Position numbers and translations under genes: made by a program. Positions 27 through 47,783 of a stretch of DNA of 64,000 bases are shown piece by piece. The first letter of the stretch is position 1. Each line of letters starts with the position of its first letter. Source of the stretch: Mytilus trossulus. Lineage: Eukaryota. The notes beneath the pieces were generated by a model. That model made no database searches and was not told the DNA's origin. It worked only from the letters and a program-made list of their open reading frames with translations. The stretch lies in assembly GCF_036588685.1 (NCBI RefSeq), contig NC_086380.1, positions 15,562,001 through 15,626,000 of the forward strand. The letters are read 5' to 3'.

Positions 27-974
27 TCAATTTACTCGTGTTTCAAAAATAGAAACTTTGAAGTATAACAATAGAGCTGGGGTGTAATTCAAATGATAAG
101 ATGTCAACCCTTTTCTAATTCCTTCTGGACACCACGATTCTTTTAGTTTTTTCATTATTTTTTGCGATTTTTTCCGGCAAGTTTCTTTGGTATCAATTCC
201 TTCCAACAATTCCTTTTCACAACTTGCAAACGAATATGTCCAATAAAATGCATCTTTTGCAATATCATTCACTCCAATGGATCTTAATTTTTCAACTTTT
301 TTCTCTGAAGGCCACTGCGATGTAGGTCTTGGCCATCCAAATGTTTTTCTAAAACGTGAGGAGGATTCTATCATAGGCGTTAGATCTACGCTAACGGAAT
401 CGCCTGCAATTTGCGGATGAGTTATTGTGAGCGTTGTCGCTGGTGATTCCGACAACCGTTTGGCATTAACATATTTGCGAATATTTGGTTGATCTTCGAC
501 GGCTCTGCCAACAAGCGATTTAAATCTGCTTTTTACAAAAATTGGTATGATGTCGTCATCAATAGTTAGACAAGCTGGGCCACCATTTATACCCTCTCTG
601 TTCCACTTACGAATAGTACCTGTTGGTGATATAAAACCTTTTCCGATTGGTGGGTCTGGTAATGTCAACTGTTTTCTGACTATTTCATTTTTCTTATCAA
701 ATCCATATTTATGATCCGAATCATCTCTGCACCAATCTAATTGCGGGGTATCTAAAACAACGCTGAAGTCGAATTCATCCGCTCTCGACACTTTTAAATG
801 TGTGTAATAACTTCCGACATTGATTGGCTGACTTTTAAAACGTCTGTCCTTGGTGTGAACATACTGAAGAATATCCTTGACAATAGGTATAACTATCTCT
901 ATGTTTTGACTTGTCTCGTTTTTAATCATTTTCACATGATCATCATAAAACTTATTCAGAAGTGTGTTATCCAT
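27..974 (-). pseudogene. cGAS-like receptor (cGLR/Mab-21 nucleotidyltransferase) copy 1, C-terminally truncated or interrupted
   Basis: ATG of MDNTLL at 974. Intact GSYY, DEFD and SVDL motifs; very similar to the 19912-21078 gene. Homology stops abruptly after LTSYHL (~nt 90) and the frame runs into unrelated sequence, losing the ~80-aa KNILFWECE... helical C-terminus. No GT donor at the junction. Confidence 0.8.
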
Positions 975-1664
975 CTTTACTACCAAGTTTCGGCCAATTT
1001 CTACAGCTAGTTATGACAGGAAGTTAAATTTGGCCTAGATTAGATAGAAATATCAGGACGTTTTCAGTCTATATTTAGGTATCATATAACAAAAGTTATC
1101 AAATAAATCTATTGTTATCTTTTTATCTACTGCATATTTTCGGAAAATCAAATACTTGTATATGCGTTTATATTATATGACTTTGTATTTTCATATTTAG
1201 ATGGTAATAGAAAACTAAACATAACACGCCTAAGCGACTGATCGAATTAATAAATGAATGGGTTGGGTTTTTTTTGAAAATTAAGACTGGATCTTTATAG
1301 TACAGTGATATAGCTTATCATTGAAATAGAGATCTTTACAAATCGGGATAATGTTAGAGATAAGGTGAGAATTATGATTTAAGTTCGAATTCGGGTTAGC
1401 GTAACGGCTAGAATTAATTTTCAACTTAAACATCATTTCGAATAATAGTTAGATATAAACATGAATTAAAACGCAGGTTTTACCAAAAGTTGAGTTAATA
1501 TGCTTCTAGAGTCAAAGCTTTCGTCCAAATTATGTATGAATGAAGAGCTTGATTGCCAGTTTGAGTTACGTGGCGAGTAGCATATCTAATACGAGTTATT
1601 ATACCTATTCCAGTTTAAAATACAGAACTTTAAAAGCAACAGATAATATGATTTTCAAACTTCT

Positions 1665-3660
1665 ATTAAAATTGACAGAATATAGATATCAATAAAGGTT
1701 GACAGAATACAGATTTTCAATTAAAGTTGACAGAATTCATCTGTTCAATTAAAAAGAACAGGTTTAGGATGTTCATTTGAAATTGACAGAATACAGATGT
1801 TAAATTGAAGTTGACAGATTATAGATGTTCAAGATCAAATTATAAGCCTGATACCTTTGATAATCATTTAAGTTGACAGAATATAGATGTCCAATTTAAG
1901 TTGACAGAATAAAGATGTCTAATTAAAGCTGACAGAATATAGATGTCCAATTAAAGTTGACAGAATACAAATGTCCAATCAAAGTTGACAGAATATAGAT
2001 GTCTAATTTAAAAAGTTTATTCACTTCTCTATCTACTGGTTTACTTTCATAAGACAGATTAAGTAGTTACTCTTCAAAGGCGATTGGTCGATAACTATAG
2101 ATGTCCAATTAAAGTTGACAGAATATAAATGTCTAATTAAAGTTGACAGAATAAAGATGTCTAATTTAAAAAGTTTATTCACTTCTCTATCTACTGGTTT
2201 ACTTTCATAAGACAGATTAAGTAGTTACTCTTCAAAGGCGATTGGTCGATAACTATAGATGTCCAATTAAAGTTGACAGAATATAAATGTCTAATTAAAG
2301 TTGACAGAATATAGATGTCTAATTTAATTTGACAGAATATAGATGTCTAATTTTAGTTGACAGAATATAAATGTCTAATCTAAGTTGACAGAATATAGAT
2401 GTCCAATTAAAGTTGACATAATATAGATGTCCAATTAAAGGTGACAGAATATAGATGTCAAATTAAAGTTGACAGAATATATATGTCTAATTTAAGTTGA
2501 CATAATATAGATGTCCAATTAAAGTTGACAGAATATAGATGTCCAATCAAAGTTGACAGAATATAGATGTTCAATTAAAGTTGATTGAATATAGATGTTT
2601 ATTTAGAGTTGACAGAATAAAGATGTCCAATTAGAGTTGACAGAATAAAGATGTCTTATTAAAGTTGACAGAATATAAATGTCTAATTAAAGTTGACAGA
2701 ATAAAGATGTCCAATTAAAGTTGACAGAATACAGATGTCCAATTAAAGTTGACAGAATATAGATGTCTAATTTAAGTTGACAGAATATAGATGTCCAATT
2801 AAAGTTGACATAATATAGATGTACAATTAAATTTGACAGAATATAGATGTCAAATTTAAGTTGACAGAATATAGATTGTTAATTTAAGTTGACAGAATAT
2901 AGATGTTCAATTAAAGTTGACAGAATATAGATGTCCAATCAAAGTTGACAGAATATAGATATCCAATTAAATTTGACATAATATAGATGTCTAATTAAAG
3001 GTGACAGAATATAGATGTCCAATTTAAGTTGACAGAATATAGATGTTCAATTACAGTTGACAGAATATAGATGTCCAATTAGAGTTGACAGAATAAAGAT
3101 GTCTAATTGAAGTTGACAGAATATAAATGTCTAATTTAAGTTGACAGAATATAGATGTCTAATTTAAGTTGACAGAATATAGATGTCTAATTTAAGTTGA
3201 CAGAATATAAATTCAAATTCAAGTTGACAGAATAAAGATGTAAAATAAGAGTTGACAGAATACAGATGTCCAATTAAAGTTGACAGAATATAGATGTCCA
3301 ATTAAAGTTTACAGAATAAAGATGTCCAATTAAAGTTTACAGAATTTAGATTTCCAATTAAAGTTGACAGAATATAGATATCCAATTAAAGTTGACAGAA
3401 TATAGATCTCCAATTAAAGTTGACAGAATATCGATGTTTAGTTAAAGTTGACAGAATAAAGATATCTAATTAATGTTTACAGAATAAAATCCAATTAAAG
3501 TTGACAGAATATAGATGTCTAATTTAAGTTGACAGAATATAGATGTTCAATTAAAGTTGACAAAATATAGATGTTCAATTAAAGTTGACAGAATAAAGAT
3601 GTCTTATTAAAGTTGACAGAATATAAATGTCCAAATAAAATAAAATTCACAGAATAGAGA
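1665..3660. repeat. 28-bp minisatellite array (AGTTGACAGAATATAGATGTCCAATTAA)n, about 60-65 units
   Basis: Direct 28-bp periodicity with no spacers. Interrupted at ~2008-2096 and ~2166-2254 by copies of the sequence found at ~3770-3857. Confidence 0.95.
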
Positions 3661-4219
3661 TGGTTAATTGAATTTCAATAGCTCCGATCTATGTGGTTCT
3701 TCAATGTAAATGATATCACGTAGCAATAATGTAAAAACATATACGATATAGTTCTATGTTCAATTGAATTTAAAAAGTTAATTCACTCTCTATCTACTGG
3801 TGTACTTTAATAAAACATATTAAGTAGTTACTCTTCAAAGGCGATAGGTCGATAACTTATATTTATATATATATATATATATATATATACATTTTGTTTC
3901 CACTCCTTTTGGTTTTTTTTATTTTTAAAGCTTAACAACTTTGTGATTAACTCCGCCCACAGTTCGAGCGCCACTGATGAGATCTATTTCGACGTCACAC
4001 GCGTATTTACCATACACAATTATAAGCCATGTATCTTTGGTATGTATTTGCTCAGTTTTTAGTTACTCTGTGAGTGCTTATTTTTACTGCTGATAAGCCT
4101 CTTGTCGTTTTCCATTGTATTTTCTGCCTTTCATTAATAGACATATGATTTGTGATTGCTTTAGAATATCTCACGTCACTGCAAGTTAATGGCGGTTCCT
4201 TGGACCGATTGGAGCTGAA

Positions 4220-5977: not shown

Positions 5978-6780
5978 TGATATCCTTTAATGCTACATTC
6001 CGCCATAAAGATGATGTTCTCTCACTAAATAAACAAAATTTGGTGACTATGTTAAACGAATCTATTCCATCGAACTAGAAATAAAGGATACAACAGATCC
6101 ATTTAGGTCTGCCTGATATTTTGACTTACATCTAAAAATTGACAATGAGGGTCGGTTGAAAACAAAACTTTACGGCAATGAGATGATTTCAGCTTCCCAA
6201 TTGTAAACTTCCATTTATATGAGGCAACATTCCAGCAGCGCCTACATAAGGAGTATATATCTCCCAATTGATACGATATTCCTGGGCTTGTATTTTCTAT
6301 CATGATTGCCTTGGTATAGGATTACTTCTCACAAGGAAGCTATTACACCAAGAGTTCAAAATGGTAAAATTGAAATCATCCCTTCTTTAAATTTTACGGA
6401 CGCCATCACGAGTTGGTTGACCATTATGGAATAACTGTTTCACTGATGATATCGGATATGTTCCTTATGTCGTAAGTACAATACCCTTCCCTTTTCACGA
6501 ATGTGACAAACCGAATTAGACTTTTTACCGGATTTGAAATAACATAGGCAATACGACGAATGCCACATGTGGAGCAGGAACTATTTGCCCTTCAAGAGCA
6601 CCTGCGATCACCCCCAGTTTTTGTGGGGTTCGTGTTGCTTAGTCTTGAATTTTCTATGTTTTGTCTTCTGTACTATTATTTGTCTGTTTGTTTTTTTATT
6701 TTTAGCAATGGCGTTATCAGTTTATTTTCAATCTATTAGTTTAACTCTCCCTCTTGTATCTTTCGTCAAACTTTTTTGAC
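5978..6780 (+). mobile_element. Degenerate Penelope-like retroelement RT C-terminal (palm/thumb) fragment plus 3' non-coding repeat
   Basis: Across frameshifts and stops it reads SFNATFRHKDDVLSLN..KFGDYVKRIYSIELEIKDTT..YFDLHLKIDNEGRLKTKLY..DDFSFPIVNF..NIPAAPT*GVYISQLIRYS..LLLTRKLLHQEF..KLKSSL..FYGRHHELVDHYGI (to ~6475). This is the YIDD/YDKRDDF/SNIP/YISQLIRY pattern of PLE-type RTs. Confidence 0.8.
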
Positions 6781-9700
6781 CCAATCCACTTCGTCCTATT
6801 GGCATATAGACAAAGCACATTAGCAATACGAAATACAACAATACAAAAGGTTACCGTAGTATGATCACACAATGATGGGATGTATAAGAACCGTGCGAGT
6901 CACGTCAAATAGATAATTCGACAGATACTAGTAGACTAAACGGTAAAAGAAACAATCTACAAGGGAAAAAAAAGAATACAACAACACGTTATTAAGATGA
7001 TAAATAAAGTAAGTATCTAGAATCTATACCCCAAGACCATCGTGTATTTTTTTTTAAATATTGATACGGAATATTTATCAACAAGGTATTTGTGTCTTCC
7101 ACTGAACTGTTTTAGAAAAAGGACGAGACATTATTTGACATACACCTGGTTCATTAACTTTCTGCTCAGAAACTAGTGACAAATGACAAAGTCTGAGTAG
7201 CAGCTGCATGCTCCTGAATACTGAATGTATATCACATACACAGATAAAGTTGTTATATTCCTACTAAGGTGGGGGATTATAATTTAGAAATCGTTATAAA
7301 CTATGCTTTCATTTTTTTAGTCTAATCAAATATTGTTCTAAATGTTTAACCTTAAATATTTATATAAATCTAAACTTGTGGGTAAAATTGTCACTACTAT
7401 ATTGTAATCAATCATGAGAGGCGGAATATACCAAACGAATAGGAAAACAGTCATCCCATCAAAATCCGGGGATGGTCACATGTGTACCAGGAAGGGTGGA
7501 CAGATCTTGATTTAAATGTGGCAGCCGCTGTGTTGCTCATGTCAGTACAAACCTGGTTATGAATCTAATTTGGTAGGTCATATTCTAGGAAAACAGGACG
7601 GGATTGCGATATTCCAAAGAAAGCTAACTATTTATGACTTTATAATGGAAGCTACTTTTATGCGAGAAACGATAATTTTCCAGTTACCCAATTTGGTTTA
7701 TCACCAAAATGCGACATATTACCGAATGTATACTTGTTATGTACAACAGAACTGTTTCCACACATGGTACACTCCCGTGATATCGATAACTATGTCCCAA
7801 TAAGTTCGTTCCAATTATTGCAAAAAAAAACATTGGATTCTATTTATTATCGGCAGATCCATTTATTTGATATGGGGAATGTGTCAAAGAGACAACAACC
7901 CGACCATATAACAGAAAACAGCAAATCCATTACGAGTTTTACAACTCGAATATTTTTAACCAAACACAATAACTCAAGTTCTGTAACTCCTCTTAATGTT
8001 AATATTGGCGTCTTTTAAAATATCAAACCTATGACGCAATGTAAGCTCAAGCCAATATTTGCCTTAAACTTTTGAAAGTGTGTTCAGTTTAACAAACTTG
8101 ATTTCTAAATCTCGTAGGAACACACGAGTTTGCAAAATACTCCTCGCATAACGCGATTGAAAACGAGAAGTTCGATTTTTTTAATCGCAGTCTTATTTCG
8201 TGCTTGAGTTAGCTAAATGATAAACACCACAAATTCCATACGAGCCGTAATACTAGTAATAGAACTATATCATGAAATTCATAATTTGTAAACGCAATTT
8301 AAATAGAATGATAAGAGGCATACAATTGATAGTAACAGCATAAACATTACATAATTTTACTAGATGAGCATTTCGGCAATAAATGTCTCTCCAGTGATGC
8401 ATGAGACCAAAACATTTGAATGTTGAAGGGCTGATCAAACCAAGAAGTGCCTAAAGTATCATCAGTAAAATTTATAAACCTGGGTATGGTACACAAGTTT
8501 ATCAATCATCCTGCAGTGTATATCATACTCTTACATTTGTAGTGATAACATTTATTGACGGTCATGGTTAAGTTTTGATGTATATTTCCGAGGCAATAAA
8601 TCTTCAACCTCTGATACATTGAGAGATAAATAAATGACCACATCTGTAGTTAGAGGGACACAGATAGTAGTTTTGAAGGACACAGTTACACAATTTAAAG
8701 CGTATTGTGATGTTTTCTTTTTTTCGATCCAAGGGTATACCAGCACAATATATATATTGTGAGCTATTGGAGTCTTATATGAAAAGAATAATGGGTGTAA
8801 TGGTGCAAAATATTTTACCCTGTAAGTCCTCAATCTATCTTAGCTGAGTTGATATACACATTGCTAACATGAGTATGGTTTATAAACATAACCATTTAAA
8901 ACGGAATACATATTTACGGAATAAACAAATTCATGAATACTATACTTCTTCTTGTATCAAGTAGGGATTATCGATTTCAAAGAGGCAAAGTTTCTAGAAG
9001 TGCATTTATAAACAGTTTTGTTTTTCTGGGTTTACAAACACACGAAACATATGAAACTTAATTACAACTTTTCCTTGTGCATAAATATCATAGCTTCAAA
9101 GTCACCGTGAAACAACTTATTCTTAAGATAAATCCAATACGATTTTTTTTTAAATAAACAAACTGCAAATTAACATATTTTATTTCTTTTCCATTTTAGT
9201 AGTATGTATGAGTTTACGAGACAGCAAGAGATGTGTAACAACAACATAACAAAACAGTATGTGTCAGGAGATCAGCAATCGTTTTTCTAAGAGAAATAAG
9301 AGTTGACGTAATTTTAAATTTAATACCGCCCGAGTGTGTTAAAGGTTTGAATAAATTTAACAGATTCTTTCCAAGATGTTACTGCAACACAAAATTACTC
9401 TAATAACATTAAGATATGAGTAAAGACAACCTTTGACAAGATTCATTACTTAGAGCAAGAGAATTAAAGGACTTGAACTTATTTTTAGCGTAAAAGCCTC
9501 ATTCTGTCAAAACGTGGAAACTTAAACATATATCAAGGAATTGCAATTAAAAATCGATTTTAACTTTACATCGCATTAAAGGCAAAACAGGGGACAATAA
9601 GTAAAACTGTTATAAATTATTTATGTATCGCAGAATGTTACCGGTTGATAACAGCAGAACATCAGAACCTTCTCTGAGCATAGCAATCATGTGTTCTACA

Positions 9701-11045
9701 CTCTAAAGCTAGTATCAGTGCCGAATGAACGTTGGAGTATATATATATTAACTACAGCATCAATAATGCTGTAAACACTTGCCCGTTCAATGCCTTCAAA
9801 ATACACAAATTTAAGTTTTATATGCAAAACTATTAAAAGATACATCTTATTGTTGTTTCATGCCATAAATTAACTAATTGATACTACCCAAATAACCCCA
9901 TACCAGCCGTAATACTGGAACTACGCCAATAAAATCATAACTTGAAAACGCATTTTTAAAGAAATATATGAAGGTTACGGCCAAAGTACTAATTTCAGTG
10001 CAACTGATGTACTTTTCGACAATTAATGTCAATTCAAAAAACATTTGAAATTCCAAAACTTATACAAACGTTGGTGAGCTTATCAAAACCAACAAGTATC
10101 TAAAGTATGAACTTTACAATCATGTTTCTCACTTTTAAAGCTGGGTATGAAACACCCTTCTAATCAATCACCCTACAGTGTAAATCATACACTTAAGTTA
10201 TTACATTTATCAACAGTCTTGGTCAAGTTTTCTGAGGCAAAAAAAATCATCAACCTTTGATTCAGTGAGAGATATAAAATAAATGACCGTCTAGAAGGGC
10301 ATAGATGATATTATTGATATACACGGTTGTACTATATTTAACAAGCGTATTGATGTTTATGTTTCACAAACACCAATGACACATATAACCGTTCAATTGA
10401 ATAAGATTTTATATGTGGATTTCTTAAAATTACTTTTATTTGAATATATATTCAGAATTTTGATGAAGATGTGAAATGATTGCATGCAACTGATACAGAT
10501 ATTCACCGTAGATCAAATGGCGCAGATGTAAGCGGCTATTAGTATTCATATGGCATCCAAAATGAACATATCCCATACAGTAAGGTAAATACATCCTCGA
10601 TATGAAAAACTGTAAAACAAATTATATGAGAAAACCAAGGACTTGGTTCATGCACAAAGCACAAACGAATACGACAACTGAATTACTGGTTCTTGGACAA
10701 GTAAGGAAAGTGGAGCATTTAAACATTTTTTTGAGGAAACCAGCCGTTCCCTCACCTGGGACAGTGGTGCAAACAAGTCTCTACATATCCCAATACGTTG
10801 AAAAAAACAAAACGATCTATGTACGTAAGATCTGAGAGAAATCAGAGTTACTGACAGCTAGTTCAAGGCCAATATCAACTAATAAAAATCAAGTATTTAA
10901 AACTAAAATTCTTTTTGTTAGTTCTTTGCGTCGTTTAATTAGTCAAACATTTTCCAGATTACTTCTCACCAGAAGAATTTCAAAATTTGGTTAGAGGATT
11001 TAAAGAACGATGATGATGCATCGGATGCTTACAAACCTCGGACAA

Positions 11046-11453
11046 TAACATTAACGGTACCAATTTTACTGCACCAGATGCGCATTTGAAATACATGTCT
11101 CTTCAGTGATGCTCGTGGCCAAAATATTTGAAATCCAAAGCTTATATAAAAGATGAAGAGCTTTAATCCAAAATGTCCAAAAGTATAGCCAAATCCGTGA
11201 AAGGAATCAGAGCTTTGCATGAGGGAGATACATTCCTTAATTTATAATATTGCTACGTTTTGTAACAGCAAATTTTAACAACACAAAAAAAAATCCGTAT
11301 TTTTATGCTGGTGATACCCTCGGGGACTAATAGTCCACCAGCACGGGCATCGACCCAGTAGTAGTAATAACATTAACGGTACCAATGTTACTGCACCAGA
11401 TGCGTATTTCGACAGTACTTGTCTCTTCAGTGATGCTCGTCGCCAAAATATTT
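11046..11453 (-). mobile_element. Retrozyme/PLE-like non-autonomous element, ~1.3-mer with terminal hammerhead-containing direct repeats
   Basis: Two ~90-bp direct repeats 322 bp apart (hammerheads at 11071 and 11393), flanked by GGACAA at 11040-11045 and 11454-11459 (TSD). Inserted in a gag relic. Confidence 0.8.
11393..11436 (-). ncRNA. Minimal type I hammerhead ribozyme, family B, intact core
   Basis: Minus strand GCATCA-CTGAAGA-GACA agtac TGTC-GAAA-T acgc A-TC/TGGTGC: stem I 6 bp, CUGANGA, stem II 4 bp, GAAA, 2-bp stem III, AUC cleavage triplet. Confidence 0.85.
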
Positions 11454-11471
11454 GGACAACACTTACGTGAG

Positions 11472-11995
11472 TGATACTTACTCAGCCAAATACGATATAT
11501 GGAAATATGAAGTATTATGCTTAGTCAAAAACCGTTATACTCACGAAACTAACAAGATGGCAATAAGAAAGAAACTAAAGGGAAATGCTGAAGTAATATC
11601 AATGAAATAATGAGAAAATGCAACAATAGATTATACTATCGATAGGACGGTTAGTATCTTTGGTTCTGTTTTTCCAGTAGACGCGCTGCTTGGGCAATTT
11701 TATACTGCAAGACAACAAGAAGTGAAGACGAAGATGACGCATCATGGGGATGTCGCCTAGCAGATATTTTACGAAAAGCAACAGACTGAGGGAAAGTTAA
11801 ACAAGGGGATACACACAGTATGCTTATATCTACATTTGAAGGACTTAGACCTGACATCAAGAACATTGGAAGATACGAATTGGATTTCGTTAAAGAGTTT
11901 GACTAAATGTTGAAAACATTTCCAATTATAGAGAAGGAAAACAATCTTGGACAAAAGAAAGAAACCACAGCTGAAAACAAGTCCTTTACTACTAA
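11472..11995 (+). pseudogene. Ty3/Gypsy gag (PNMA-like capsid) relic, copy 1
   Basis: Reads YDIWKYEVLCL..MAIRKKLKGNAEVISM..SIFGSV..ALLGQFYTARQ..EDDASWGCRLADILRKA..MLISTFEGLRPDIK with stops and frameshifts. Confidence 0.75.
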
Positions 11996-12480
11996 TAATT
12001 AAATTATTTGAAGGTTCGATGGTTTTACACGGATCCCATCGTGATTTCCGATCTTTAAGCACAATGTTACCATAAAATTTAGGATGTGAAATACCGATTT
12101 TAATAATAAAATGGACAATGGAAATGGGTATTGAGTTTCCCTTTAGAAACTGAAATATCTCAAGCTAGAAAAGGACAACTACTGCTTTTTATGTTAGATT
12201 TAGTTAAAGTAAGTTTCTTTGGGTACATTTTGGTACTATATCTACAGAACTCTGTTAAAAATAGCAGACTGAACATGTTTCTTACCTTAGATATAAATCA
12301 GCGCACATTAAATGAATGTAGCATAAAGTCGTTATAAACAGTCTGAGAATGTCATAACTTTGTGTAATGACAAAGTATAGGGGTCAACAGAATGATGTAT
12401 CTTAAATGTTCACAACTATGTTTAGTTATGTTTTGTTTATTAATAACAAAATTAATGTAAGTACCAGTACAACAACAATT

Positions 12481-12772
12481 AATAGTTATCAAAAGTACCA
12501 GGATTATAATTTAATACGCCAGACGCGCGTTTCGTCTAAATAAGACTCATTGGTGACGCTCAGATCAAAACAGTTAAAAGCCAAACAAATGTTGAAGAGC
12601 ATTGAGATCGACCCAAAATTCCAAAAAGTTGTGCCAAATACGGCCAAGGTAATGTACTTCTGGAGGTAAGAAAATCCTTAGTTTTTTTAAAAATTCAAAG
12701 TTTTGTTAACAGAAAATTTACAAAAATTACCATATAATTCATATTCATGTCAACACCGAAGTGCTAACTTCT
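12481..12772 (-). mobile_element. Family A hammerhead-bearing repeat; ribozyme at 12516-12559 is core-mutated (CCAAUGA)
   Basis: Minus strand GCGTCA-CCAATGA-GTCT tattt AGAC-GAAA-C GCGC G-TC-TGGCGT. Paralogue of the intact copy at 26441. Confidence 0.8.
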
Positions 12773-13026
12773 AGATTTGTTTATAGTCTGCTTGAATCAA
12801 ATAGTTTTTTAGCAAGGGCAGATGATCATAAACTCAGTCAGCAATCCATAACTTCTATAAATGATTAAATTTCATCAAATATACCAGGCTGACAATTTGG
12901 TATGGCATGATTAATGTAGATTAAAACTTAAAACTTCTTACTTTTTGGTTTAATTACGGTTTATTATATTGTGTTCATCCTTCGCGATGTTTATTTAACA
13001 GGTACCTAATATAACATATTCTGTTA

Positions 13027-16307: not shown

Positions 16308-17420
16308 ACACAATTTTTGTGTTGGCATCTATTATGATTTTATTAACGAAAAACACAAATGGTATTGGCAACCAACGAAAACCATCGTTAGCATACTTTT
16401 TTGCTTCGGATTGTCACAAAACAAAATGTTGCGGGGTTTGTTGTCTGCAAAATCGGTTGACTTGGATGAATAATTGAATTTTTTTATTGCCCCATGAAAA
16501 AGGGTAAGTGGGGAAAGTGTAAGGGTTAGGCTTGGCCTTGATTTAAAATGATACATTCATCTGACCATTTTTCAATAATGGGGATGGGATTTACATGTTT
16601 AACGAGCCTATTCCTAATACATTAACGAAATGTTCACTAAATTGATATATCTTAAAGAATTTCTTATAGTTGGGTTTAGATTTTGTCCGTTCATCATTTT
16701 CCAAAACCCAAAGTAAGAAGATTATAATTGGAAACTAAACCAGTTATAAAAGAAAGAAAAACAACAATAAAAACTGCTTACAAAACACTGCAAAAAAGTT
16801 ATTGATTACCACAAAAGAGCACAACTAGATGATCGAAATTGAACATATGTGCTAAAACAGGGCCAATACTTCCCATTTTACTACTCTGGTTACAACTGTT
16901 AAAATCCATAGATAAATCATAAATGTTACTAAGGCACGAGACAGAGGCGTATTTGAAGTTCTTTCAATCATTATGTATTGTCAAACTTTATTATAAGAAT
17001 TAAAATCAAAATCAGATCAAACTCAAGCGTTCTTATTGTGAAAGCACTTAAGGAATACCTTCTCAAGTCCTATCATATTGAATTATTTTTGTACTTTTGT
17101 TGTTTCATCCATTTGGACAATTAACAGCCCTTTCTAAACAAAATAACCTCAGCCCTACATTGAATGAAATCCTGAATCTGCACAAGAACTTGTTCTATAT
17201 TCCAGTACCCTTGGGGCATTTTGAAAATCCATTTTCTCAATCTAAATCTAGCGATATTAAAAACTGTTGCCTAAGTATGGCCTTTGTTATATTACATCTA
17301 TTTTTAGAACTGAAAATCCCTTTTCTATTTTATATATTCGTTTCTTGAAAATGATATTGATACATTTTGAAGGAGAACAAGGTATTACTTTCATTATTCC
17401 CATAAGGTTTACATGTAAAT

Positions 17421-18614
17421 ATGGATAATACAATGTTGGATACATTTTATAAAAATAATATTAAATTGACAAAAGACGAAACAAAGGACATTCTTGATTT
17501 TGTCAAACCTAAAATCGATTATATTGTTCAGTACATTCATGAGAGGGACAAGCGGTTCAAACTTCGCCCATTGAATGTCGGGAGTTACTATTCCCGTCTT
17601 AAAGTATCTCGGGCAGACGAGTTTGATTATAGTGTAGTGTTAGATTCAGGACCATATTTGGTTTGGACAACCCAGACACCGGCTTTTTCTGCATGTGATA
17701 CAATCCTTGGAAATACGGAGGTGGTTAGAACATCAAGTTCACTGCCGTCAGCACCCGTTGGGAAATGCGTTACTAAACTTTCAAGAAGTATACCACAGTG
17801 GAATAAAAAACGTATGAATGAAGGATCTGACTGCTTGACAATTGGCGATCACATTATTCCGATGAAAGTGAAAAAAAGATTTCAAGCACTCGTCATTGAA
17901 GCTATTAAACAACCACTTATAAGTCGATATGTTGATGCAAAGAGATCATCCGGATCACCTGCCGTTACATTGACTATAGCTGATCCCGATGCTGATGATG
18001 TAGAACCAATAAGTGTAGACCTTGCACCTCTTATTGAAGCACACCTTCCATTCAAACCAGAGTTTAATTGGCCTAGACCACAGGCCAGATGGCCTTCTAG
18101 TACACAGATTAAAGATATACAAGATGAAGGAATACACTTGGTTGCTAAAGATCCTGAATATTGGACTTTATCATTCGTCACATGTGAAAAAAAATTGTTA
18201 GAAAGCACGGAAACAACGGGAACATGCCGAAATAAAAGTCATCGAATAATGAAAAAACTCTGTGAAATTTGGTGTCCAGAAGGAACAAAACAGGTTCTCA
18301 ACTCGTACCATATCAAAAACATTTATTTCTGGGAATGTGAATATCATCCGGATGACTGGGAGTGGACTAAAAAACAGCTAGCCGTCAGGGTTGAGTCTAT
18401 GTGTGATTTGCTTATTAAATATATAGATGATAGGAACCTTCCTGTTTATTTCCACACAGGGATCAATTTGTTTAAAAACTACTTGACGGACCAACAAGTG
18501 TTTGACAATGTTCAAAAGGAAATTCGTACTTTTTGGGAAAACCCAGAGGACTATCTTAGGGACTACATGGAAGAGGAAGAGGAAGAAGAAGAAGATGATG
18601 ATGATTTTTACTGA
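17421..18614 (+). CDS. cGAS-like receptor (cGLR/Mab-21 family nucleotidyltransferase), 397 aa, acidic C-terminal tail
   Basis: Single ORF with NVGSYY activation loop, DEFD metal-binding acids, SVDL third acid, W-LSF..EK, SYHIKN..FW, LP-YF...NLF. Ends EEEEEEEEDDDDFY. Confidence 0.93.
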   Translation: MDNTMLDTFYKNNIKLTKDETKDILDFVKPKIDYIVQYIHERDKRFKLRPLNVGSYYSRLKVSRADEFDYSVVLDSGPYLVWTTQTPAFSACDTILGNTEVVRTSSSLPSAPVGKCVTKLSRSIPQWNKKRMNEGSDCLTIGDHIIPMKVKKRFQALVIEAIKQPLISRYVDAKRSSGSPAVTLTIADPDADDVEPISVDLAPLIEAHLPFKPEFNWPRPQARWPSSTQIKDIQDEGIHLVAKDPEYWTLSFVTCEKKLLESTETTGTCRNKSHRIMKKLCEIWCPEGTKQVLNSYHIKNIYFWECEYHPDDWEWTKKQLAVRVESMCDLLIKYIDDRNLPVYFHTGINLFKNYLTDQQVFDNVQKEIRTFWENPEDYLRDYMEEEEEEEEDDDDFY

Positions 18615-19911: not shown

Positions 19912-21078
19912 TCAATAATGCCTCTGCAAGTAACTAACAGGATCCCGCAAAAATTTTTGAATGTTTCTAGCAACTTGATTAAGAACGTCAATGTCCTTTG
20001 TAGAAAATAAATTCACTCGAGGATGAAAATATTGAGGTACATTTTCTTCCCGTATACATTTAAGCAAGCGGTCACACATTGACCTGAGTCTAGTGGCCAG
20101 TTTATCATCAGACCATTCATAATCATGTGAGTGGTCCTCACACTCCCAAAAGAGGATATTCTTCAAATGGTAAGATGTCAAGTCTTGCTTCATTCCTTCT
20201 GGACACCATGCTTCTTTTAGCTTTTTCATGATCCTTTGTGATTTTTTCCGACAAGTTCCATTGGCATCAATACCTTCCAACAATTCCTTTTCACAGCTTG
20301 CATAAGAATATGTCCAATAAAATGGATCTTTTGCAATATCATGAAATCCCATAGACTTTAATTTCTCGACTTTTTCATTAGAAGGCCACTGTGTTTCTTG
20401 TCTTGGCCACATGAAACTCTCTTCAAAAGGCGTGCATGATTCTATCAAAGGCGTTAAATCAACACTTACAGAATCGCCTGCAATTTGTGGATGAGTAATT
20501 CTGAGCGTTGTCGCTGGTGAATCTGATAATCTTTTAGCATCAACATATTTGCGAATATGTGGTCGATTTACTGCTTCGCCAACAAGTGATTTGAATCTGC
20601 GTTTAACCTTAATTGGTATAATGTCAACATCAATTGTAAGACATGCTGGGCCGTCATTAATCCCCTCTCTATTCCATTTAGGTATGGTATTTGAAAGATA
20701 TATAAAACCTTTCCCGACTGGTGGGTCTGGTAATGTTAAACCTTTTCTGACTACTTCATTGTTCTCGTCGAATCCATAACTATGAGAAGAGCTTTTACTG
20801 CTCCAAACAAGATGTGGTGTATCCAAAACAACACTAAAATCGAATTCATCAGCTCTCGACACTTTTAGGTGTGTATAATAGCTTCCAACATTCAATGGTT
20901 GACATTTGAATCGTCGGTCCTGGCTATGTACATACTGCAGGATATCCTCGACAATAGGCATAACTACCTTAATGTTTTGTCTTGTCTCGTCTCTTATCAT
21001 TTTCACATGATCATCATAAAACCTATTCAGAAGTGTGTTGTCCATTATTCCACTACCACTAGTAGGATAGTTTGACAT
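19912..21078 (-). CDS. cGAS-like receptor (cGLR/Mab-21 family nucleotidyltransferase), 377-388 aa
   Basis: Single intact ORF. First ATG at 21078 (MSNYPT); the paralogue-conserved ATG (MDNTLL) is at 21045. Motifs GSYY, DEFD, SVDL, SYHLKNILFW, VPQYFHPRVNLF. Confidence 0.94.
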   Translation of the reverse strand: MSNYPTSGSGIMDNTLLNRFYDDHVKMIRDETRQNIKVVMPIVEDILQYVHSQDRRFKCQPLNVGSYYTHLKVSRADEFDFSVVLDTPHLVWSSKSSSHSYGFDENNEVVRKGLTLPDPPVGKGFIYLSNTIPKWNREGINDGPACLTIDVDIIPIKVKRRFKSLVGEAVNRPHIRKYVDAKRLSDSPATTLRITHPQIAGDSVSVDLTPLIESCTPFEESFMWPRQETQWPSNEKVEKLKSMGFHDIAKDPFYWTYSYASCEKELLEGIDANGTCRKKSQRIMKKLKEAWCPEGMKQDLTSYHLKNILFWECEDHSHDYEWSDDKLATRLRSMCDRLLKCIREENVPQYFHPRVNLFSTKDIDVLNQVARNIQKFLRDPVSYLQRHY

Positions 21079-21483
21079 TCGGTTTAGCAGTTCAGTTGTG
21101 GTAAGAATAGATTTAAACACGAAGAAATTTCCAGTCTATATTTAGATTAAAAAAATTACAGGTACTATATTTACCTATTGTATATTTTCAGAAAATCAGC
21201 TAAATTTATTTGCATTCATTTCATTTCTATATAACATAGTACAAAAGTTTAGTTCGCAATAATTGTTGAGCTTTTCTTGAGAAAGTTCAGAAAATCAAAA
21301 CTACTAAACGAATTGATATATGAATACTTACAAAAATAAATAAAGACCTGGATCTTTGTTATAAAGAAGAGTTTGGGATCGAGATCGTTCCAGTTCAAGT
21401 AAGATCAAAGTGTTAGTAAAAGTTCGAATTGGGATGAAAGTTATGATCAGATTTTAAATTTGAGTATAACATCGGATCTAAGT

Positions 21484-21716
21484 AATAGTTATCAAAGGTA
21501 CCAGGATTATAATTTAGTACGCCAGACGCGCGTTTCGTCTACATAAGACTCATCAGTGAGTTTCATATCAAAATATTTCTAAAGCCAAACAGGTACAAAA
21601 CTTTTGTAAACAGGGAAATTTATAAAAATGACCATTTATTGATATGCATGTCAACACCGAAGTGTGGACTATTAGGCTGGTGATACCCTCGGGGACGAAA
21701 CGTCCACCAGCAGTGG
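21484..21716 (-). mobile_element. Family A hammerhead-bearing repeat (ribozyme 21519-21560, intact core, shortened stem I), internally deleted
   Basis: Minus strand TCA-CTGATGA-GTCT tatgt AGAC-GAAA-C GCGC G-TC-TGGCGT. Lies ~400 bp upstream of, and on the same strand as, the minus-strand cGLR. Confidence 0.8.
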
Positions 21717-24700
21717 TAGGAGTTCGAGTCTACCATCAGCTAAGGCTTAAGGTATACTGCCGGAAGCGTATATGTGTGTGGTTTACAGTGCAATTTCATG
21801 TGTTATTACAAGTCCATTACAAGTTTTACAACTCGAATATTTTTAACCAAACACAATAACCAAAGTTCTGCAACTCGTCTTAATGCTAATATTGGCGCCT
21901 TTTCAATATCAGACTTTAGACGTGATGAAGGGTCGAGCCAATATTTGCATTAAACTTGTTTTAGTGTGGTCGGTTTCACAAACTTGATTTCTAAATCTCG
22001 TATATCGGGGTGTAAGACCACTCACGTGCTTGCAAAATACTCCTCGCAAAACGCGATTGGAAACGAGAATTTTTTAATTGCAGTCTTATTTCGTGCTTGA
22101 ATTAGCTAATTGATAAACACCATCAATTTCATACAAGTCGTAATACTAGTAAGCAGTAGAATCATGTCATGAAAATCATAATTTGTAAACGCAATTTAAA
22201 GAGAAAGATAATAGGCATACAATTGTTAGCAACAGCATAAACATTACATAACTTCACTAGATGAGCATTTCGACAATTAATTTCTCTTCAGTAGTGCATG
22301 TGGCCAAAAAATTTGAAAGAGCTGATCAAATCAAGAAGTGCCTAAAGTATAATGAGTCTTTTCTTATACAGCTGGATAAGAAACACCAGTTTATCAAGCA
22401 TTCTGCAGTGTACATCATACTCTTACTTTTGAAGTGATAACATTTATTGACAGTCATGGTCAAGTTTTGATGTATATTTCCGAGGCAATAAATCATCAGC
22501 GTTTGATACATTGAGAGATAAATAAATGACCACATCTGTAGTTAGAGGGTCACCGATAGTAGTTTTGAAGGACACAGTTACACAATGTAAAGCGTATTGT
22601 GATGTTTTTCTTCTTTTCGTATAAATCAAGGGTATAACAGTACAATATATATAGCTCATAGTATATACGAGTCTAAATTGAAAACTACGTTCAAACCTAT
22701 GATTGCGTTGGATAAAAACCGCAATTTTTATACGTGTGCATGTAAAACAAATTTCGTTGTAGAAGGGTCTAAAAACAGCACAAACAACATTTTCCAAAAA
22801 AAAAGAAAGTGAAAAAGTATATTTAAACAAAACGCATTTGACTAACAGGTCGAACAACTGATGTTCTTTAACCCTGCTGACTGCCTTTGGCGATTGCCAA
22901 ATAAAATTGATCACAAGATGTAACAAAATGGATCTCAATATATATTTAATACTAAACAGGAACAAATTTTTAACTTGTTACCACGATGTTATGCCACAAA
23001 CATACGGTGTCAATATTTTTTTTATTTTTTTTTTTCACAATATATATATATACATATCGTGAGCTATTGGAGTCTTGGAGAATAATGGGTGTAATGGCGC
23101 AAAATATTTTACCCTGTAAGTTCTCAATCTATCTTAGATGAGTTGGTATACACATTGCTAAGGAGTAAGACGATGGAATGTCATGAGTATGGTTTATAAA
23201 CATATCCATTTAAAACGAAATACATATTTACGGAATAATCAAATTCATGAATACAATACTTCTTCTTGTATCAAGTAGGGATTGTCGATTTCAAAGAGGC
23301 AAAGTTTCTAGAAATACATTTATAAACAGTTTTATTTTTCTGAGTTTGCAAACACACGAAACATCTGAAACTTAATTAAAGAACTCGTACTTATCTTTAA
23401 CGTAAAAGCCTCATTTTTTCAAAACGTTGAAACTAAAACATAAATCAAGGTATCAATTTTAAAATGTTTAACGCCTTATCACAAGGGATAATAAATAAAA
23501 CTATTATAAATAATACCTATAGCAGAATGTTAGCAGTTGATAAAAACATAACAAAAGAACCTTCTCTGACCATATCAATCGTGTGTCCTACACTCTATAG
23601 CTAGTATCAGTGCCGAATGAACGTTGGGGTATATATTGCATGCAGCATTAATAATGCAGCAAACACTGTGCAATGCCTTTACAAATTTAAGATTTCTCTG
23701 CAAACTATTAAAAGATACATCGATCTCGTTGTTGTTTCATGCCATAAATAAGCTAATTGGTATTAACCCAACCCCACAACGGCTGTAATAATGGAACTAT
23801 AAAAAATAAAATCATAACTCGTAAACGCATTTTTAAAGAAATATGTAACGGGTACGGCCAAAGTACTAATTTCACTGCAATAAAATCAACGGTACCAATT
23901 TTGCAACATATGTACTTTTCGACAATTAATTTCAAAAAACCTTTGAAATTCCAAAACTTATACAAACGTTGGTAAGCTTATCAAAACCAACAAGGATCTA
24001 AAGTATTAACTTTACAATAATTTTTCTCACTTATAAAGCTGGGTATGAAACACCCTTCTAATCAATCACCCTACAGTGTAAATTATACACTTAAGTTAGT
24101 GGTCATTTGTTATTACATTTATCAACAACAGTCTTGGTCAAGTTTTGATGTGTACTTCAGAGGCAAAAAAATCATCAAGCTTTGATATAGTGAGAGATAT
24201 AAAGTAAATGACCGCCTAGAAGGGCATAGATGATATTATTGATATACACGGTTGTACTATATTTAACAAGCGTATTGATGTTTATGTTTCACAAACACCA
24301 ATGACACATATAACCGTTCAATTGAATAAGATTTTATATGTGGATTTCTTAAAATTACTTTTATTTGAATATATATTCAGAATTTTGATGAAGATGTGAA
24401 ATGATTGCATGCGACTGATACAGATATTCACCGTAGATCAAATGGCGCAGATGTAAGCAGCTATAAGTAGTCATATGACATCAAAAATAAACATATCTCA
24501 TACAGTAAGCTAAATACATCCTCGATATGGAAAATTGTAAAAAAAATCATATGAGAAAACCAAGGACTTTGTTCATGCACAACTCACAAACGACCACGAC
24601 AACTGAATTACAGTTTCTTGGACAAGAAGAGAAAGAATGGAGTGGAGCATTTAAACATTTTTGCGAGTAAATCAGCCGTTCCCTAACCTGGGACAGTGAT

Positions 24701-24970
24701 GCAAACAGGTCTATGTATATCCCAATTCTTTGAAGAAAAAACACTATGTACGTAAAAACTGAGAGAAATCAGAGTTACTGACAGCTAGTTCAAGGCCAAT
24801 ATCAACTAATACAAATCAAGTATTTAAAACTTAAAGTCTTTTTGCTAGTTTTTTGAGTGATTAATTAGTAAAACATTTTCCAGGTTACTTCTCACCAGAA
24901 CAATTTCAAACTTCGTAAGAGGAATAAAAGGACGATGATGATGCATTGGATGAGTACATACCTTGGACAA

Positions 24971-25369
24971 TAATATTAACGGAACCAATTATCCTGCACC
25001 AGATGCGCATTTGACAATACATGTCTCTTCAGTGATGGTCGTGGCCAAAATATTTGAAATCCAAAGCTTATATAAAAGATGAAGAGCTATAATCCAAACG
25101 GTTCAAAGAGTATAGCCCAATCTGTGAAAGGAATCCGAGCTTTTCATGAGGCATAATTTATAATAATTTTTACATTTTGTAACAGCAAATTTTAATAACA
25201 CAGACAAAAATCCGTAGTATTTTCATGCCAGTACCGTACTGGCTACTGGGATAGTGATACCCTCGGGGACTAACAGTACACCAGCAGAACTATCGACCCA
25301 GTGGTAGTAGTTACATTAACGGTACCAATTGTACATGTCTCTTCAGTGATGCTCGTGGTCAAAATATTT
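24971..25369 (-). mobile_element. Duplicate of the 1.3-mer retrozyme-like element; both hammerheads damaged
   Basis: Flanked by (TT)GGACAA. The 24996-25038 motif lacks G12, and the second motif (~25330-25352) has lost GAAA and stem III. Confidence 0.75.
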
Positions 25370-25388
25370 GGACAACAGTTACGTGAGT

Positions 25389-25925
25389 GATACATACTCA
25401 GCTAAATACGATATATGGAGGTATGAAGTATTATGCTTAGTCAAAAGCCGTTATACTCACGAAACTATCAAGATGGCAATAAGAAAGTAACTAAAGGGAA
25501 ATGCTGCAGTAATATCAATGAGATTATGAGAAAATGCAACAATAGATTAGACTATCGATAGTACGGATAGTATCTTTGGTTCGGTTTTTTCAGTAGAAGC
25601 GCTGCTTGGGCAATTTTATACTGCAAGACAACAAGAAGTGAAGACGAAGATGACGAAGATGACGCATCATGGGGATGTCGCCTAGAAGATATTTTACGAA
25701 AAGCAACATACAGAGGGAAAGTTAAACAAGAGGATACAAACAGTATGCTTATATCTACATTTGAAGGACTTAGACCTGACATCAAGAACATTGGAAGATA
25801 CGAAATGGATTCATTTAAAGAGTTTGAACTAATGTTGAAAACATTTCCAAATTTAGAGAAGGAAAACAATCTTGGACAAAAGAAAGAAACCACAGCTGAA
25901 AATAAGTCCTTTACTACTAATATTT
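25389..25925 (+). pseudogene. Ty3/Gypsy gag (PNMA-like capsid) relic, copy 2
   Basis: DTYSAKYDIWRYEVLCLVKSRYTHETIKMAIRK*LKGNAAVISMRL*ENATID*TIDSTDSIFGSVFSVEALLGQFYTARQQE/fs/EDDASWGCRLEDILRKATYRGKVKQEDTNSMLISTFEGLRPDIKNIGRYEMDSFKEFELMLK. Confidence 0.8.
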
Positions 25926-26440
25926 AAATTATTTGAAGGTTCGATCGATTTACACGGATCCCATCGTGATTTCCGATCTTTAAGCACAATGTTACCATAA
26001 AATTTAGGATGTGAAATACCGATTTTAATAATAAAATGGACATTGGAAATGGGTATTGAGTTTCCCTTTAGAAACTGAAATATGTCAAGCTAGAAAAGGA
26101 CAACTACTGCTGTTTATGTTAGATTTAGTTAAAGTAAGTTTCTTTGGGTACATTTTGGTAGTATATCTACAGAACTCTGTTAAAAATAGCAGACTGAACA
26201 TGTTTCTTACCTTAGATATAAATCAGCACACATTAAATGAATGTAGCATAAAGTCGTTATAAACAGTCTGAGATTGCCATAACTTTGTGTAATGACAAAG
26301 TATAGGGATCAACAGAATGATGTATCTTAAATTTTCACAACTATATTTAGTTATGTTTTGTTTATTAATAACAAAATTGATGTAAGTACCAGTACAACAA
26401 CAATTAATAGTTATCAAAAGTACCAGGATTATAATTTAAT

Positions 26441-26484
26441 ACGCCAGACGCGCGTTTCGTCTACACAAGACTCATCAGTGACGC
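26441..26484 (-). ncRNA. Minimal type I hammerhead ribozyme, family A, fully intact (within repeat 26406-26693)
   Basis: Minus strand GCGTCA-CTGATGA-GTCT tgtgt AGAC-GAAA-C GCGC G-TC/TGGCGT. Palindromic GCGC loop III and GUC cleavage site. Confidence 0.9.
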
Positions 26485-27154
26485 TAAGATAAAAACAGTT
26501 AAAAGCCAAACAAATGTTGAAGAGCATTGAGGACCCAAAATTCCAAAAAGTTGTGCCAAATACGGCCAAGGTAATGTACTTCTGGAGGTAAGAAAATCCT
26601 TAGTTTTTCAAAAAATTCAAAGTTTTGTTAACTGAAAATTTATAAAAATTACCATATAATTCATATTCATGTCAACACCGAAGTGCTGACTACTAGATTT
26701 GTTTATAGTCTGCTTGAATCAAATAGTTTTTAAGCAAGGACAGATGATCATAAACTCATTCAGCAATCTATAACTTCTATGAATGATTAAATTTCATCAA
26801 ATATACCAGGCTGCCAATTTGGTATGGCAGGATTAATGTAGATTAAAACTTAAAACTTCTTACTTTTTGGTTAAATTACGGTTTATTATATTGTGTAAAG
26901 TGTTCATCCTTCGCGGTGTTTATTTAACAGGTACCTAATATAACATATTCTGTTATTTACAAAACATTTTTGGTTCACCTTAAATATATCCTCATAACCA
27001 CCCCTCGTCGACGTGAACGCATGTTCCATGTTTATATAATATATGAATACGTCAAAATACTTGACAGCTAAACGAATGACATTCTCTTTTTTCATAACCA
27101 AGGGTTAATATTGAGATATATATAAATGCATAAGACTATAACTTTTACATGATG

Positions 27155-39304: not shown

Positions 39305-40550
39305 CATTATACTTAGGAAGTTGCTTGCTTTTGGCAGACACATGAGTATATGGAGTAAACGGAGTTTAAGCTAGTTTTTTTTAAATCTCAACCATGATCC
39401 TATCCCCCCTTTTATTTGCCGGTGCCTCCCAAACGAGAAAAAAAGACGTTATATTACTTTTGTATTGTTATTCAAATCATCCGCATGTTAGTATCAATAT
39501 TTTTAATTCTATACATACTACATGTATAAAGACTTAACAAAAGTCGGGGGAAATCTCGACAGTGGATTTATAAGAATAAATCTAAATATCAATGAAAAAT
39601 GCTTCAATACATCTTAACAATCAAAAAAGATAAAATTTCATGCTTGATTAATTGTAAAATATTTAAAATTGTGGTTTTCTCCTTTATACCCTCCATTTAA
39701 ATTCGTTATAACGTAAAAATCGATTGTTTGGAATACATTACTATCACTGGGTATTTGACAGTTTAAACGGATTTATAACAAGTGTCATCTGTATATATAC
39801 ATGTATAAACACCAGTCTACTGTCTGTTTGTACATGTATAATCCGATTTTAGAATATTCAGTAACAACAATAGATAAAAATGTAGATGTGTTTGTTTTCC
39901 GTTCATCAGTACTACCTGTGTATGTTAAATAAGGCACAGTTTTTATCAATAATAATAGCATGTTGTTTAGAAATCTTGGATGAAAATTGTGTAGAGATAA
40001 TTAACCTTGGAATAAAAGGCCAACGTAGTGAGATTCAGAATTCAGGTGAGTAATGTTTCATAAGTAACTTTATATGTAAGAATACGGCCATTTATGACCA
40101 GTAAAAGGGGATATACTAGTTGTGTTGATGAAGATGACTATCTATAATAATGAGATTTCGTCATGGTCATATTCGACAAGCACGCGAATTCCAATAGATA
40201 TGAATGTTAATTTTGATTATTAAACAACATTTATAAGATTTCAAAGATTTCTTGTATATTTTACGAGATTTATCTCGTGATATTCCTATTCGTTCTTCAA
40301 TAATAATATTTTAAAGAAGTTTTCTAGACATTTAGCTACACTGTTTCAATTTTCGCCCTGGACGATAGCGCTTACATCAATTGAATAAATATACAGGAGA
40401 TTGGAAAAACATCCGGTTTTCTTTAAGTATAAACACTATTCATTTATAAATTATTTAAAAATTATAACAATATTTATCATTGGGAAATTATAACAATGTA
40501 ATAGTACAATTTTACAAAAGGTTTTCTTCAAATTGTAGATATTATTTAAC

Positions 40551-41129
40551 ATGTCGGACGGTACAGAAATATTAAACAGAATTTATAACCCGAATCTTGC
40601 CCATGTGCTACATCCTGTTACTCTTCAGCATATGGCCAGAGAATGGCTGAAGGAAGATACACCGAACTTTGATTATGGTGGTTTTGTGGTTGGAGAAAAG
40701 GAAGAAACGGCGTTGCTATTGATGAAGGGGGAGGGCGTTTTAGCAGGAGTACCATTTTTCAATGCTGTCTTTAAGGAATTGGAATGTACAGTTACATGGA
40801 ACGAAGTGGAGGGAAACTTTATTGAACCAATTAAATGTGTTGCTACTGTGTTCGGAAAAGTCCGTCAACTTTTACTCGGTGAGAGAGTAGCATTAAACTG
40901 TCTTTCAAGAGCAAGTGGAATCGCTACATTAGCTAGAAGATTGCATAACGTAGCAGACGACGCTGGGTGGAAAGGTCAGATTGCTGGAACAAGGAAGACA
41001 ACTCCTGGATTTAGGCTTGTAGAAAAATATGCTCTTTTAGTGGGAGGAGTCTCCACACATAGATACGACCTTTCCTCTATGATAATGCTTAAAGACAACC
41101 ATATATGGACAGCCGGAAGTATTAGTAAA
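40551..41129 (+). CDS. QPRT: Quinolinate phosphoribosyltransferase (nicotinate-nucleotide pyrophosphorylase), coding exon 1
   Basis: [50 protein letters not shown]. Donor AAA|GTATGT at 41130. Acceptor TTGTAG just upstream of the ATG and a candidate 5'UTR donor CAG|GTGAGT at 40046. Confidence 0.96.
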
Positions 41130-43636: not shown

Positions 43637-43786
43637 ATACATAATTAAAACTGATATTGATGAGTAGTTGTCTTATAGTTAGAATTTTTCCTGTTATCAT
43701 CTAAAAGTTGGCGTTCCAAGAAGGCGAGTTAATTCTTTTATTCCTCGGATTGAATGAAATGGTTCTATTCTGTATTGTGTTTGGTA

Positions 43787-47700: not shown

Positions 47701-47783
47701 GTTCAGTTTCGAAAATAGTTATATGTGTACCAATATGACATCTATCCACCACAGACCGAATGACTTTTTTGTGAATTTGTAAA
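44720..47783. repeat. 84-bp satellite-like array, about 29 units, with higher-order periodicity; last unit split by a LINE fragment
   Basis: GGGGTGATGTTATATGTGTACCAATACGACATCTATCCACCACAGACGGATAGACTTTTTTGTGAATTTGT(A)n. Variant units (GAGATC, AAAACAAATT, GGAGAGG) recur in the same order. Confidence 0.97.
47117..47717 (-). mobile_element. Heavily 5'-truncated LINE with (TTAC)n tail and GTTATA TSD
   Basis: FETEHYI..RSYLAQLRCGILPLRVETGRY..CIFC..ETELHFIFNCPLY. GTTATA at 47111-47116 and 47718-47723. Confidence 0.85.

Follow-up and report, generated by a model that had tools for sequence, protein, structure and literature searches.

Two type I hammerhead families of retrozymes have been described in the mussel Mytilus galloprovincialis, where they form non-coding, expressed tandem repeats of ~350 bp (PMC7229834). 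The available text of that paper describes no second conserved motif, fixed insertion end or partner clade. A review by the same group presents mussel-type repeats as lacking a conserved motif that points to an autonomous partner, and names the mobilising enzyme of animal retrozymes as an open question (PMC7761336). Retrozymes may exploit Penelope-like elements (PLEs), a general remark that is the sole retrozyme link in the available text on the Naiad PLEs (Craig et al. 2021, PMC8557442). Naiads are defined there by an N-terminal GIY-YIG domain, a DKA motif, a C-terminal reverse transcriptase (RT), partial tandems and the absence of a canonical hammerhead; the same text mentions no 5' RNA structure, though 16 of its 54 Naiad consensuses carry the hairpin described below at or near their start. 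In a further system, the Anolis Poseidon element, the RT initiates at internal sites of the RNA and depends on RNA downstream of these sites, and the genomic ends match them (PMC11167929). Retrozymes, Naiads and a general retrozyme–PLE link are already known. Full-text literature searches, whose scope did not extend to subscription papers, figures or the supplements of PMC7229834 and of the Xenopus preprint discussed at the end, returned no paper on the hairpin, the fixed end or a pairing of Naiads with retrozymes.

Retrozyme insertions in the window and in the genome

The window, i.e. the whole stretch of 64,000 nt of Mytilus trossulus DNA that was analysed, carries a decayed family B retrozyme insertion of ~1.2 units on the minus strand (11044..11454), delimited by blastn against a real family B dimer. 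Its type I hammerhead (11391..11438, minus strand) was found by pattern match and lies below the Rfam gathering score, with the predicted cut after 11399; a second hammerhead of the same insertion (11069..11114, minus strand) is damaged, its core GAAA being altered. The motif at 11307-11362, minus (ribozyme) strand, has the sequence and both complementarities that the sequence-only reading had reported. Its distance from the cleavage site had been put at ~30 nt, yet the hairpin stem begins 40 nt behind the cut. The 3' end of the insertion, at 11044, is the unit position 23 nt before the hairpin core; such positions are given below as negative numbers relative to the core.

A paralogous family B insertion (24969..25370, minus strand; 3' end at 24969, -23) lies in a segmental duplicate, and its hairpin, at 25238-25307, consists of the basal helix, a degraded second helix H2 and the downstream hairpin. 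The duplication (9462-13026 versus 23374-26955, 87.5% identity) doubles the retrozyme insertions; because the 11307 and 25243 copies both fall within it, they are not independent. Family A is represented by three fragments on the minus strand: one that starts 5 nt before the core and has a 5'-truncated hairpin (21598..21716), a hammerhead fragment with its 3' end at the fixed point (21484..21599; 21484, -24), and one that lacks the hairpin and stops at the same fixed 3' end (12481..12772, -24; duplicate at 26406-26694). The family A hammerhead gave the sole Rfam match in the window (RF00163 at 21519-21562, 37.6 bits). On the plus strand, a 3' fragment of the family D element described below (6199..6781) stops near the fixed point (-18).

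The window also holds other material. Another repeat (7922-8756 and 21809-22653, and loci L305 and L371) has a family-B-like hammerhead and no hairpin at the usual distance; two RNA runs each contain 224-320 reads that show its flanks. The frames 27-1010 (minus), 17406-18614 (plus) and 19912-21135 (minus) are related, single-exon and 327-407 aa long, and presumably encode relatives of Mab-21/cGAS-like nucleotidyltransferases. Further frames (40539-41168, 42326-43634, 47345-47815 and 57167-59056) we take to resemble quinolinate phosphoribosyltransferase, LINE RT fragments and a 7-TM receptor. Minisatellites occur at 1661-3675, 43769-44357 and 44727-47116, with periods of 28, 76 and 82 bp.

At the genome scale, a 21-mer from the motif core has 11,100 exact copies, 7,029 with the family A loop and 1,994 with the family B loop, and its reversed control has 0. 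The host repeats are short non-coding tandem units of 355, 350 and 352 bp, and each unit type, A, B and E, contains a type I hammerhead (pattern match; for A also Rfam RF00163). Families A and B fit the published description of the M. galloprovincialis retrozymes. The two are homologous over the whole unit, and the motif is their best-conserved block, as had been proposed: 58/64 nt are identical (91%), compared with 32/47 in the hammerhead and 123/186 (66%) in the remainder. Relaxed patterns and one DNA query on the genome yielded the further retrozymes E and G and the elements D and F, while collection scans yielded family C and the oyster-type family O, both from other animals. One retrozyme from another animal (L418, L473, L498) differs in its hammerhead, and its hairpin is of the oyster-Naiad type.

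Most matches of the collection scans were due to chance. In the metagenome scan 3/119 loci were genuine among the matches listed, and in the prokaryote genome scan 6/112, all in AT-rich animal-like DNA. The loci L406, L418, L433, L456, L473 and L498 in bacterial records are probably host contamination, namely animal-like retrozyme or Naiad DNA. One scan of viral contigs gave 0 matches and a second gave 68, of which only six, near-identical high-GC phage matches, paired in both helices; these six were taken as chance, as their setting looks like coding DNA. Short tandem arrays of the hairpin region were also seen: 74-nt units that are almost the motif alone in L406 (at a noisy contig end), a 131-nt spacing at G000:C12:27544286-27545097, and multiples of 78 nt at G000:C5:60421601-60422406.

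In RNA reads, mates are biased at the motif by ~5:1 and ~4:1 in two of three raw runs and ~1:1 in the third; by the usual library convention the bias corresponds to the ribozyme strand, and the runs may come from related species. Head-to-tail joints are present in the reads and are equally compatible with circles or tandem transcripts.

Fold of the conserved motif

To describe the motif we use the minus-strand coordinates of the 11307 copy. The 5' strand of the basal helix H1 lies at 11354..11359; the 3' strand that would pair with it has been lost here by deletion. The 5' strand of helix H2 (11346..11351) pairs, with covariation, with the 3' strand at 11313..11318. H2 encloses a near-invariant core (11319..11342) with a bulged G-C and U and a variable apical hairpin cap, whose loop region is 11328-11332. 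A variable 5-nt internal-loop strand (11308..11312) follows, which is the second crossing strand of the sequence-only reading.

Pairs were counted on alignment A2, whose 15 rows (14 distinct, from six families) are related to one another, leave out the three family F and L119 rows and include one added row from the window. The nested fold pairs 96.4% of cells and is also the RNAalifold output. For GAUGCC/GGUAUC, 97.6% of cells are paired and two pairs show double changes (G-U to A-U and G-C; C-G to U-A). The helix proposed from sequence alone as GAUGCCC/GGGUAUC is thus a real, co-varying one, but it spans 6 bp in the families, and the seventh pair is private to the 11307 copy. With one row per family (n=9), H2 is complete in 7/9 rows and the crossing helix GCUGGU/ACCAGC in 3/9. 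H1 is likewise complete in 7/9; its family F version has three double changes, and the L456 row is out of register. The internal pairs of the core are nearly invariant in A2 and so lack covariation support there; one core pair each is broken in the published hemichordate and Modiolus Naiad copies. The covariation of the apical hairpin reported earlier holds (U-A to G-C in the 21676-21716 copy, which is 5'-truncated and lacks the GAUGCC strand), and ACUGGG/CCCAGU does close the 25238-25307 copy. As to the strand, the G-U pairs favour that of the ribozyme, and so does a downstream cUUCGg hairpin, in which families A and B differ by three double changes. Folding energy does not discriminate, since in most families the opposite strand is predicted to be at least as stable. 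The earlier reading of a conserved, structured element in ribozyme-strand RNA, common to the families, is borne out; from the alignments it is probably a nested bulged hairpin of ~60 nt and not a pseudoknot.

The 11307 copy lacks 26 nt present in intact family B units, comprising the partner of the basal helix and the UUCG hairpin. As this deletion took the basal partner, the crossing helix looks like the closing helix in that copy. In L003, L070, L244, L433 and L418 and at 25212-25235 of the window, the region just 3' of the motif forms a hairpin of 8 bp that shows compensatory changes and in most cases has a cUUCGg loop. It is followed by CAUGA at about the position of the Naiad start codon, and is found in retrozymes but not in Naiads D and F.

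The motif has no match in Rfam, in keeping with the earlier remark that it cannot be assigned to a known family. An intact family B unit searched against Rfam at E up to 5 gave three sub-threshold, unrelated matches, and covariance models of the twister, twister sister, pistol, hatchet and hairpin ribozymes gave none. HDV-like ribozymes have a nested double pseudoknot with a conserved L3, P1.1, P4 and a catalytic C in J4/2. This identity was rejected on the missing Rfam match, the variable apical loop, the absence of P4 and J4/2 and an unsupported outer crossing helix. A kissing-loop palindrome, GGUACC, after the hammerhead seemed to be kept in families A and B, but the versions of D and G are non-palindromic and E differs. 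The tRNA-like fold that the 21676 copy shows on its plus strand is a junction accident that is missing from intact units, and resemblances to a CTCF site or Pol III box, judged by eye, are one base short or wrongly spaced.

Naiads with the hairpin and the 3' ends of genomic copies

In family D (L270-L281, L288, L289) the hairpin precedes a frame of ~1000 codons in a 3,371-bp unit and follows a U-rich 3' terminus. This partial tandem organisation, with the 3' terminus before the hairpin, was seen in 14/14 inspected loci. In L278 the ATG lies 58 nt after the core start, and the frame has, in order, CxxxxCxxxxCxxC, VVYG-CxxC, DKA and C-terminal RT motifs. Family D thus has an N-terminal Zn-finger and GIY-YIG-like region, and DKA in place of DKG. 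Pfam gave a weak RVT_1 match on the Naiad frame (E 3e-5, below cut-off) and did not find GIY-YIG. The N-terminal parts of D and F are 48% identical over 495 aligned positions, the family F translation matches the published Naiad_Mgal by eye, and a hammerhead was absent from 9/9 family D loci (pattern with stem filter). Judged by these features, families D and F qualify as autonomous Naiad PLEs. Naiad RTs are IFD-bearing relatives of telomerase.

When the retrozyme units A, B and E were compared with 4.7 kb of Naiad D, the ~70-nt motif was the only significant match (E 8e-19, 8e-19 and 3e-12). Among the 54 published Naiad consensuses (PMC8557442 supplement), for which the first ~140 nt were inspected by eye and a 9-mer was searched, the core is found at or near the start in 16, namely in 3 corals, 9/11 bivalves, 3/4 hemichordates and 1 toadfish. 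It is the same type of core as that at 11319..11342. By eye, the basal helices of these consensuses differ in sequence yet pair, and the apical loops range from a few to ~19 nt. The other 38/54 have no recognisable core in the first ~140 nt, so the core is not universal in Naiads; 12/54 are marked incomplete. Two of the 38, from a ctenophore and a razor clam, have a diverged look-alike. A second conserved motif, GC-rich and located at the start of the Naiad ORF (L278, L336) ~75-100 nt after the core, can also be recognised by eye in the consensuses of oyster, coral and hemichordate Naiads, and is absent from retrozyme units. File S1 of PMC8557442 gives a (TA)n target preference or a hammerhead core for many Naiads, but for none of the 16 that bear the hairpin core.

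To map the ends of genomic copies, real units were compared with 80 evenly spaced stretches of 10 kb each (800 kb), and the blast limits were taken as ends. Over all 80, 21/51 retrozyme and 31/58 Naiad D 3' ends lie 18-30 nt before the core. Because the bin -30..-18 relative to the core had been chosen after viewing 20 stretches and the window, the count was repeated on the other, held-out 60. There, 19/45 retrozyme 3' ends fall in the bin compared with 1/45 5' ends (Fisher p 2e-6), rising to 12/18 for the 3' ends of copies with at least 85% identity, and Naiad D shows the same (3' ends 27/49, 5' ends 0/45). The remaining 26/45 held-out retrozyme 3' ends lie outside the bin; clusters of ends at -31, -51 and -58 probably mark the divergence of sister families from the reference and are included in the counts. 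In Naiad F, whose stem contains an inserted hairpin of 24 nt, the ends fall in -54..-42 in 17/27 cases, a bin set after the 80-stretch mapping, and in -30..-18 in 0/27. Since the end shifts with the insert, its position is set by the stem base, 5-9 nt before the stem.

The hairpin itself is usually left out of insertions, as exact cores occur in only 6 of 158 matches over 800 kb. Exact copies of the Naiad D 3' terminus number 5,873 compared with 115 of the 3' half of the hairpin, and Naiad copies have scattered 5' ends, i.e. they are 5'-truncated. Of the family A and B ends, 0/50 lie within 2 nt of the hammerhead cut, which makes self-cleaved linear monomers unlikely templates.

A candidate signal for the Naiad reverse transcriptase

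Because both retrozyme and Naiad copies stop just before the hairpin, we read it as a recognition and start signal: in our analysis it is likely the template site bound by a Naiad RT, with copying beginning a few bases upstream of it. RT recognition was among the roles guessed in the sequence-only reading, and with the Naiad link and the end mapping it is now the best supported; the other guesses, another ribozyme or a role in ligation or stability, gained no positive evidence. The driver of retrozymes A, B and E would be a Naiad, with families D and F as candidates. Against this, the Poseidon precedent belongs to a different PLE clade, the GC-rich ORF-start motif of Naiads is absent from retrozymes, and an RNA cut just before the hairpin would also give a fixed 3' end. 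The near-invariant core pairs, the 38/54 consensuses with no recognisable core in their first ~140 nt, the 26/45 held-out retrozyme ends outside the bin and the weak Pfam match count against it as well.

Such a cut is the basis of the first alternative, in which the hairpin is an RNA-processing signal, either a self-cleaving ribozyme of a new kind or the target of a nuclease from the host or the Naiad. Cleavage just 5' of the stem would give both the 5' end of the element and the template's 3' end, as HDV-like ribozymes do for R2. The invariant bulged core would suit this, as would the fact that Naiads free of hammerheads have the hairpin at their 5' start (0/9 family D loci with a hammerhead, 0/16 consensuses flagged HHR_core). 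Retrozymes, however, already own a hammerhead, and a second cut per unit would free a piece of ~35-40 nt; linear and circular monomers of 350-400 nt have been reported, and a full monomer was recovered from a gel after transcription, the available text speaking of no additional cut (PMC7229834). There is also no Rfam ribozyme match. Read ends do not pile up near the motif in the three raw RNA runs, but neither do they at the hammerhead cut, so this measure is insensitive. Taken together, we regard a processing signal as unlikely.

It is quite unlikely, in our view, that the motif is a DNA promoter or a translation-start element of the Naiad ORF which retrozymes kept for expression, the fixed end having another cause. 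The motif lies just before the Naiad start codon, PLE pLTRs have internal promoters (PMC8557442), retrozymes are highly expressed, and the core is kept in sequence and not through covariation. The flanking helices, on the other hand, co-vary and include G-U pairs on the sense strand, the end tracks the base of the stem upon the 24-nt insertion, and retrozymes, in the units inspected by eye, have no conserved ORF for such an element to serve.

The pseudoknot proposed from the sequence alone, or a switch based on alternate pairing of GCUGGU with the 3' bulge, is improbable as a functional element of retrozymes. The crossing order exists on paper, and the second helix can form 6/6 pairs in A, B and E (in E via a G-U) and 5/6 in G, C, D and F. 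In A2, three of the six stay intact in every row, and a published ark-clam Naiad can by eye form all six, so that the helix may form transiently as an alternative pairing. The comparative data nevertheless back one of the two helices. GCUGGU/ACCAGC has 0 double changes in A2 with 85.7% of cells paired (12/84 unpaired), so the covariation expected of both crossing helices is found in one, an outcome that the sequence-only reading had named as refuting its proposal, and oyster-type versions form 3/6 pairs. The pair probability is 0.00-0.02 in nested ensembles, which cannot model pseudoknots. With H2 formed, moreover, a pseudoknot would have connecting loops of 3 and 0 nt, presumably a sterically unlikely arrangement, and the constancy of the 5' strand in the ensembles and in the one-row-per-family comparison is partly built in, as that strand was fixed by the search pattern.

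Finally, the motif could be functionless in retrozymes and merely inherited from an ancestral Naiad junction, as Xenopus retrozymes resemble PLE pLTRs (bioRxiv 10.64898/2026.07.22.740005) and A and B are homologous along the whole unit, but the contrast between the 91% identical block and the 66% identical remainder, and the one shared point at which retrozyme and Naiad insertions stop, make this very improbable.

Returning to template recognition, the Naiad protein would read the invariant bulged core, its GIY-YIG domain would nick AT-rich DNA, and target-primed reverse transcription would begin internally, in the U-rich stretch 5' of the stem. Given an internal start upstream of the stem, the hairpin would not be copied first, and it could be inherited only if the enzyme made a full turn on a circle or copied a tandem transcript. 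Such inheritance would explain the tandem arrays and the fit of hammerhead-made circles to a retrozyme parasite. Retrozymes may have derived from, or captured, the end-start junction of a Naiad, and gained the hammerhead and the UUCG hairpin. We further propose, tentatively and at somewhat less than even confidence, that from corals to bivalves, hemichordates and a fish the hairpin is the template-recognition element of Naiad RTs, that Naiads and their retrozyme parasites need circular or tandem RNA templates, and that a diverged form may reach the ctenophore and razor-clam Naiads.

The motif points to the Naiads as a candidate clade for the mobilisation of retrozymes, whose discoverers saw no motif pointing to the enzyme (PMC7761336), and supplies candidates for the RNA signal and, to the base, for the start site. 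Naiads, which are dominant in bivalve genomes and free of hammerheads, would gain a candidate cis-element, and the motif suggests why retrozymes and Naiads come as tandems and circles. If the proposal is true, it would provide a portable handle of ~60 nt for the target-primed insertion of circular RNAs.

That a non-autonomous RNA carries a structure recognised by the RT of its partner is familiar from the shared 3' tails of SINE–LINE pairs and from the 3'-UTR structure of R2. In those systems every insertion receives a copy of the signal, which is situated upstream of the start; in the elements described here it is downstream of the start, and insertions usually lack it. The Xenopus retrozymes (Li, Clavereau, Pollet 2026, bioRxiv 10.64898/2026.07.22.740005) are likewise non-autonomous partners of PLEs with shared terminal sequence; the available text of that study deals mainly with vertebrates, without molluscs, RNA structure or end mapping, and notes a Naiad in coral only. 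A parallel in mechanism is Anolis Poseidon PAc (Frangieh et al. 2024, PMC11167929), in which, as is proposed here, the start lies inside the RNA, downstream of the hammerhead, and RNA 3' of the start is needed. PAc starts in an AC-rich stem-loop inside the ORF, at two sites that give a tail (PMC11167929), while the elements described here have one dominant end, upstream of a hairpin in the 5' UTR.
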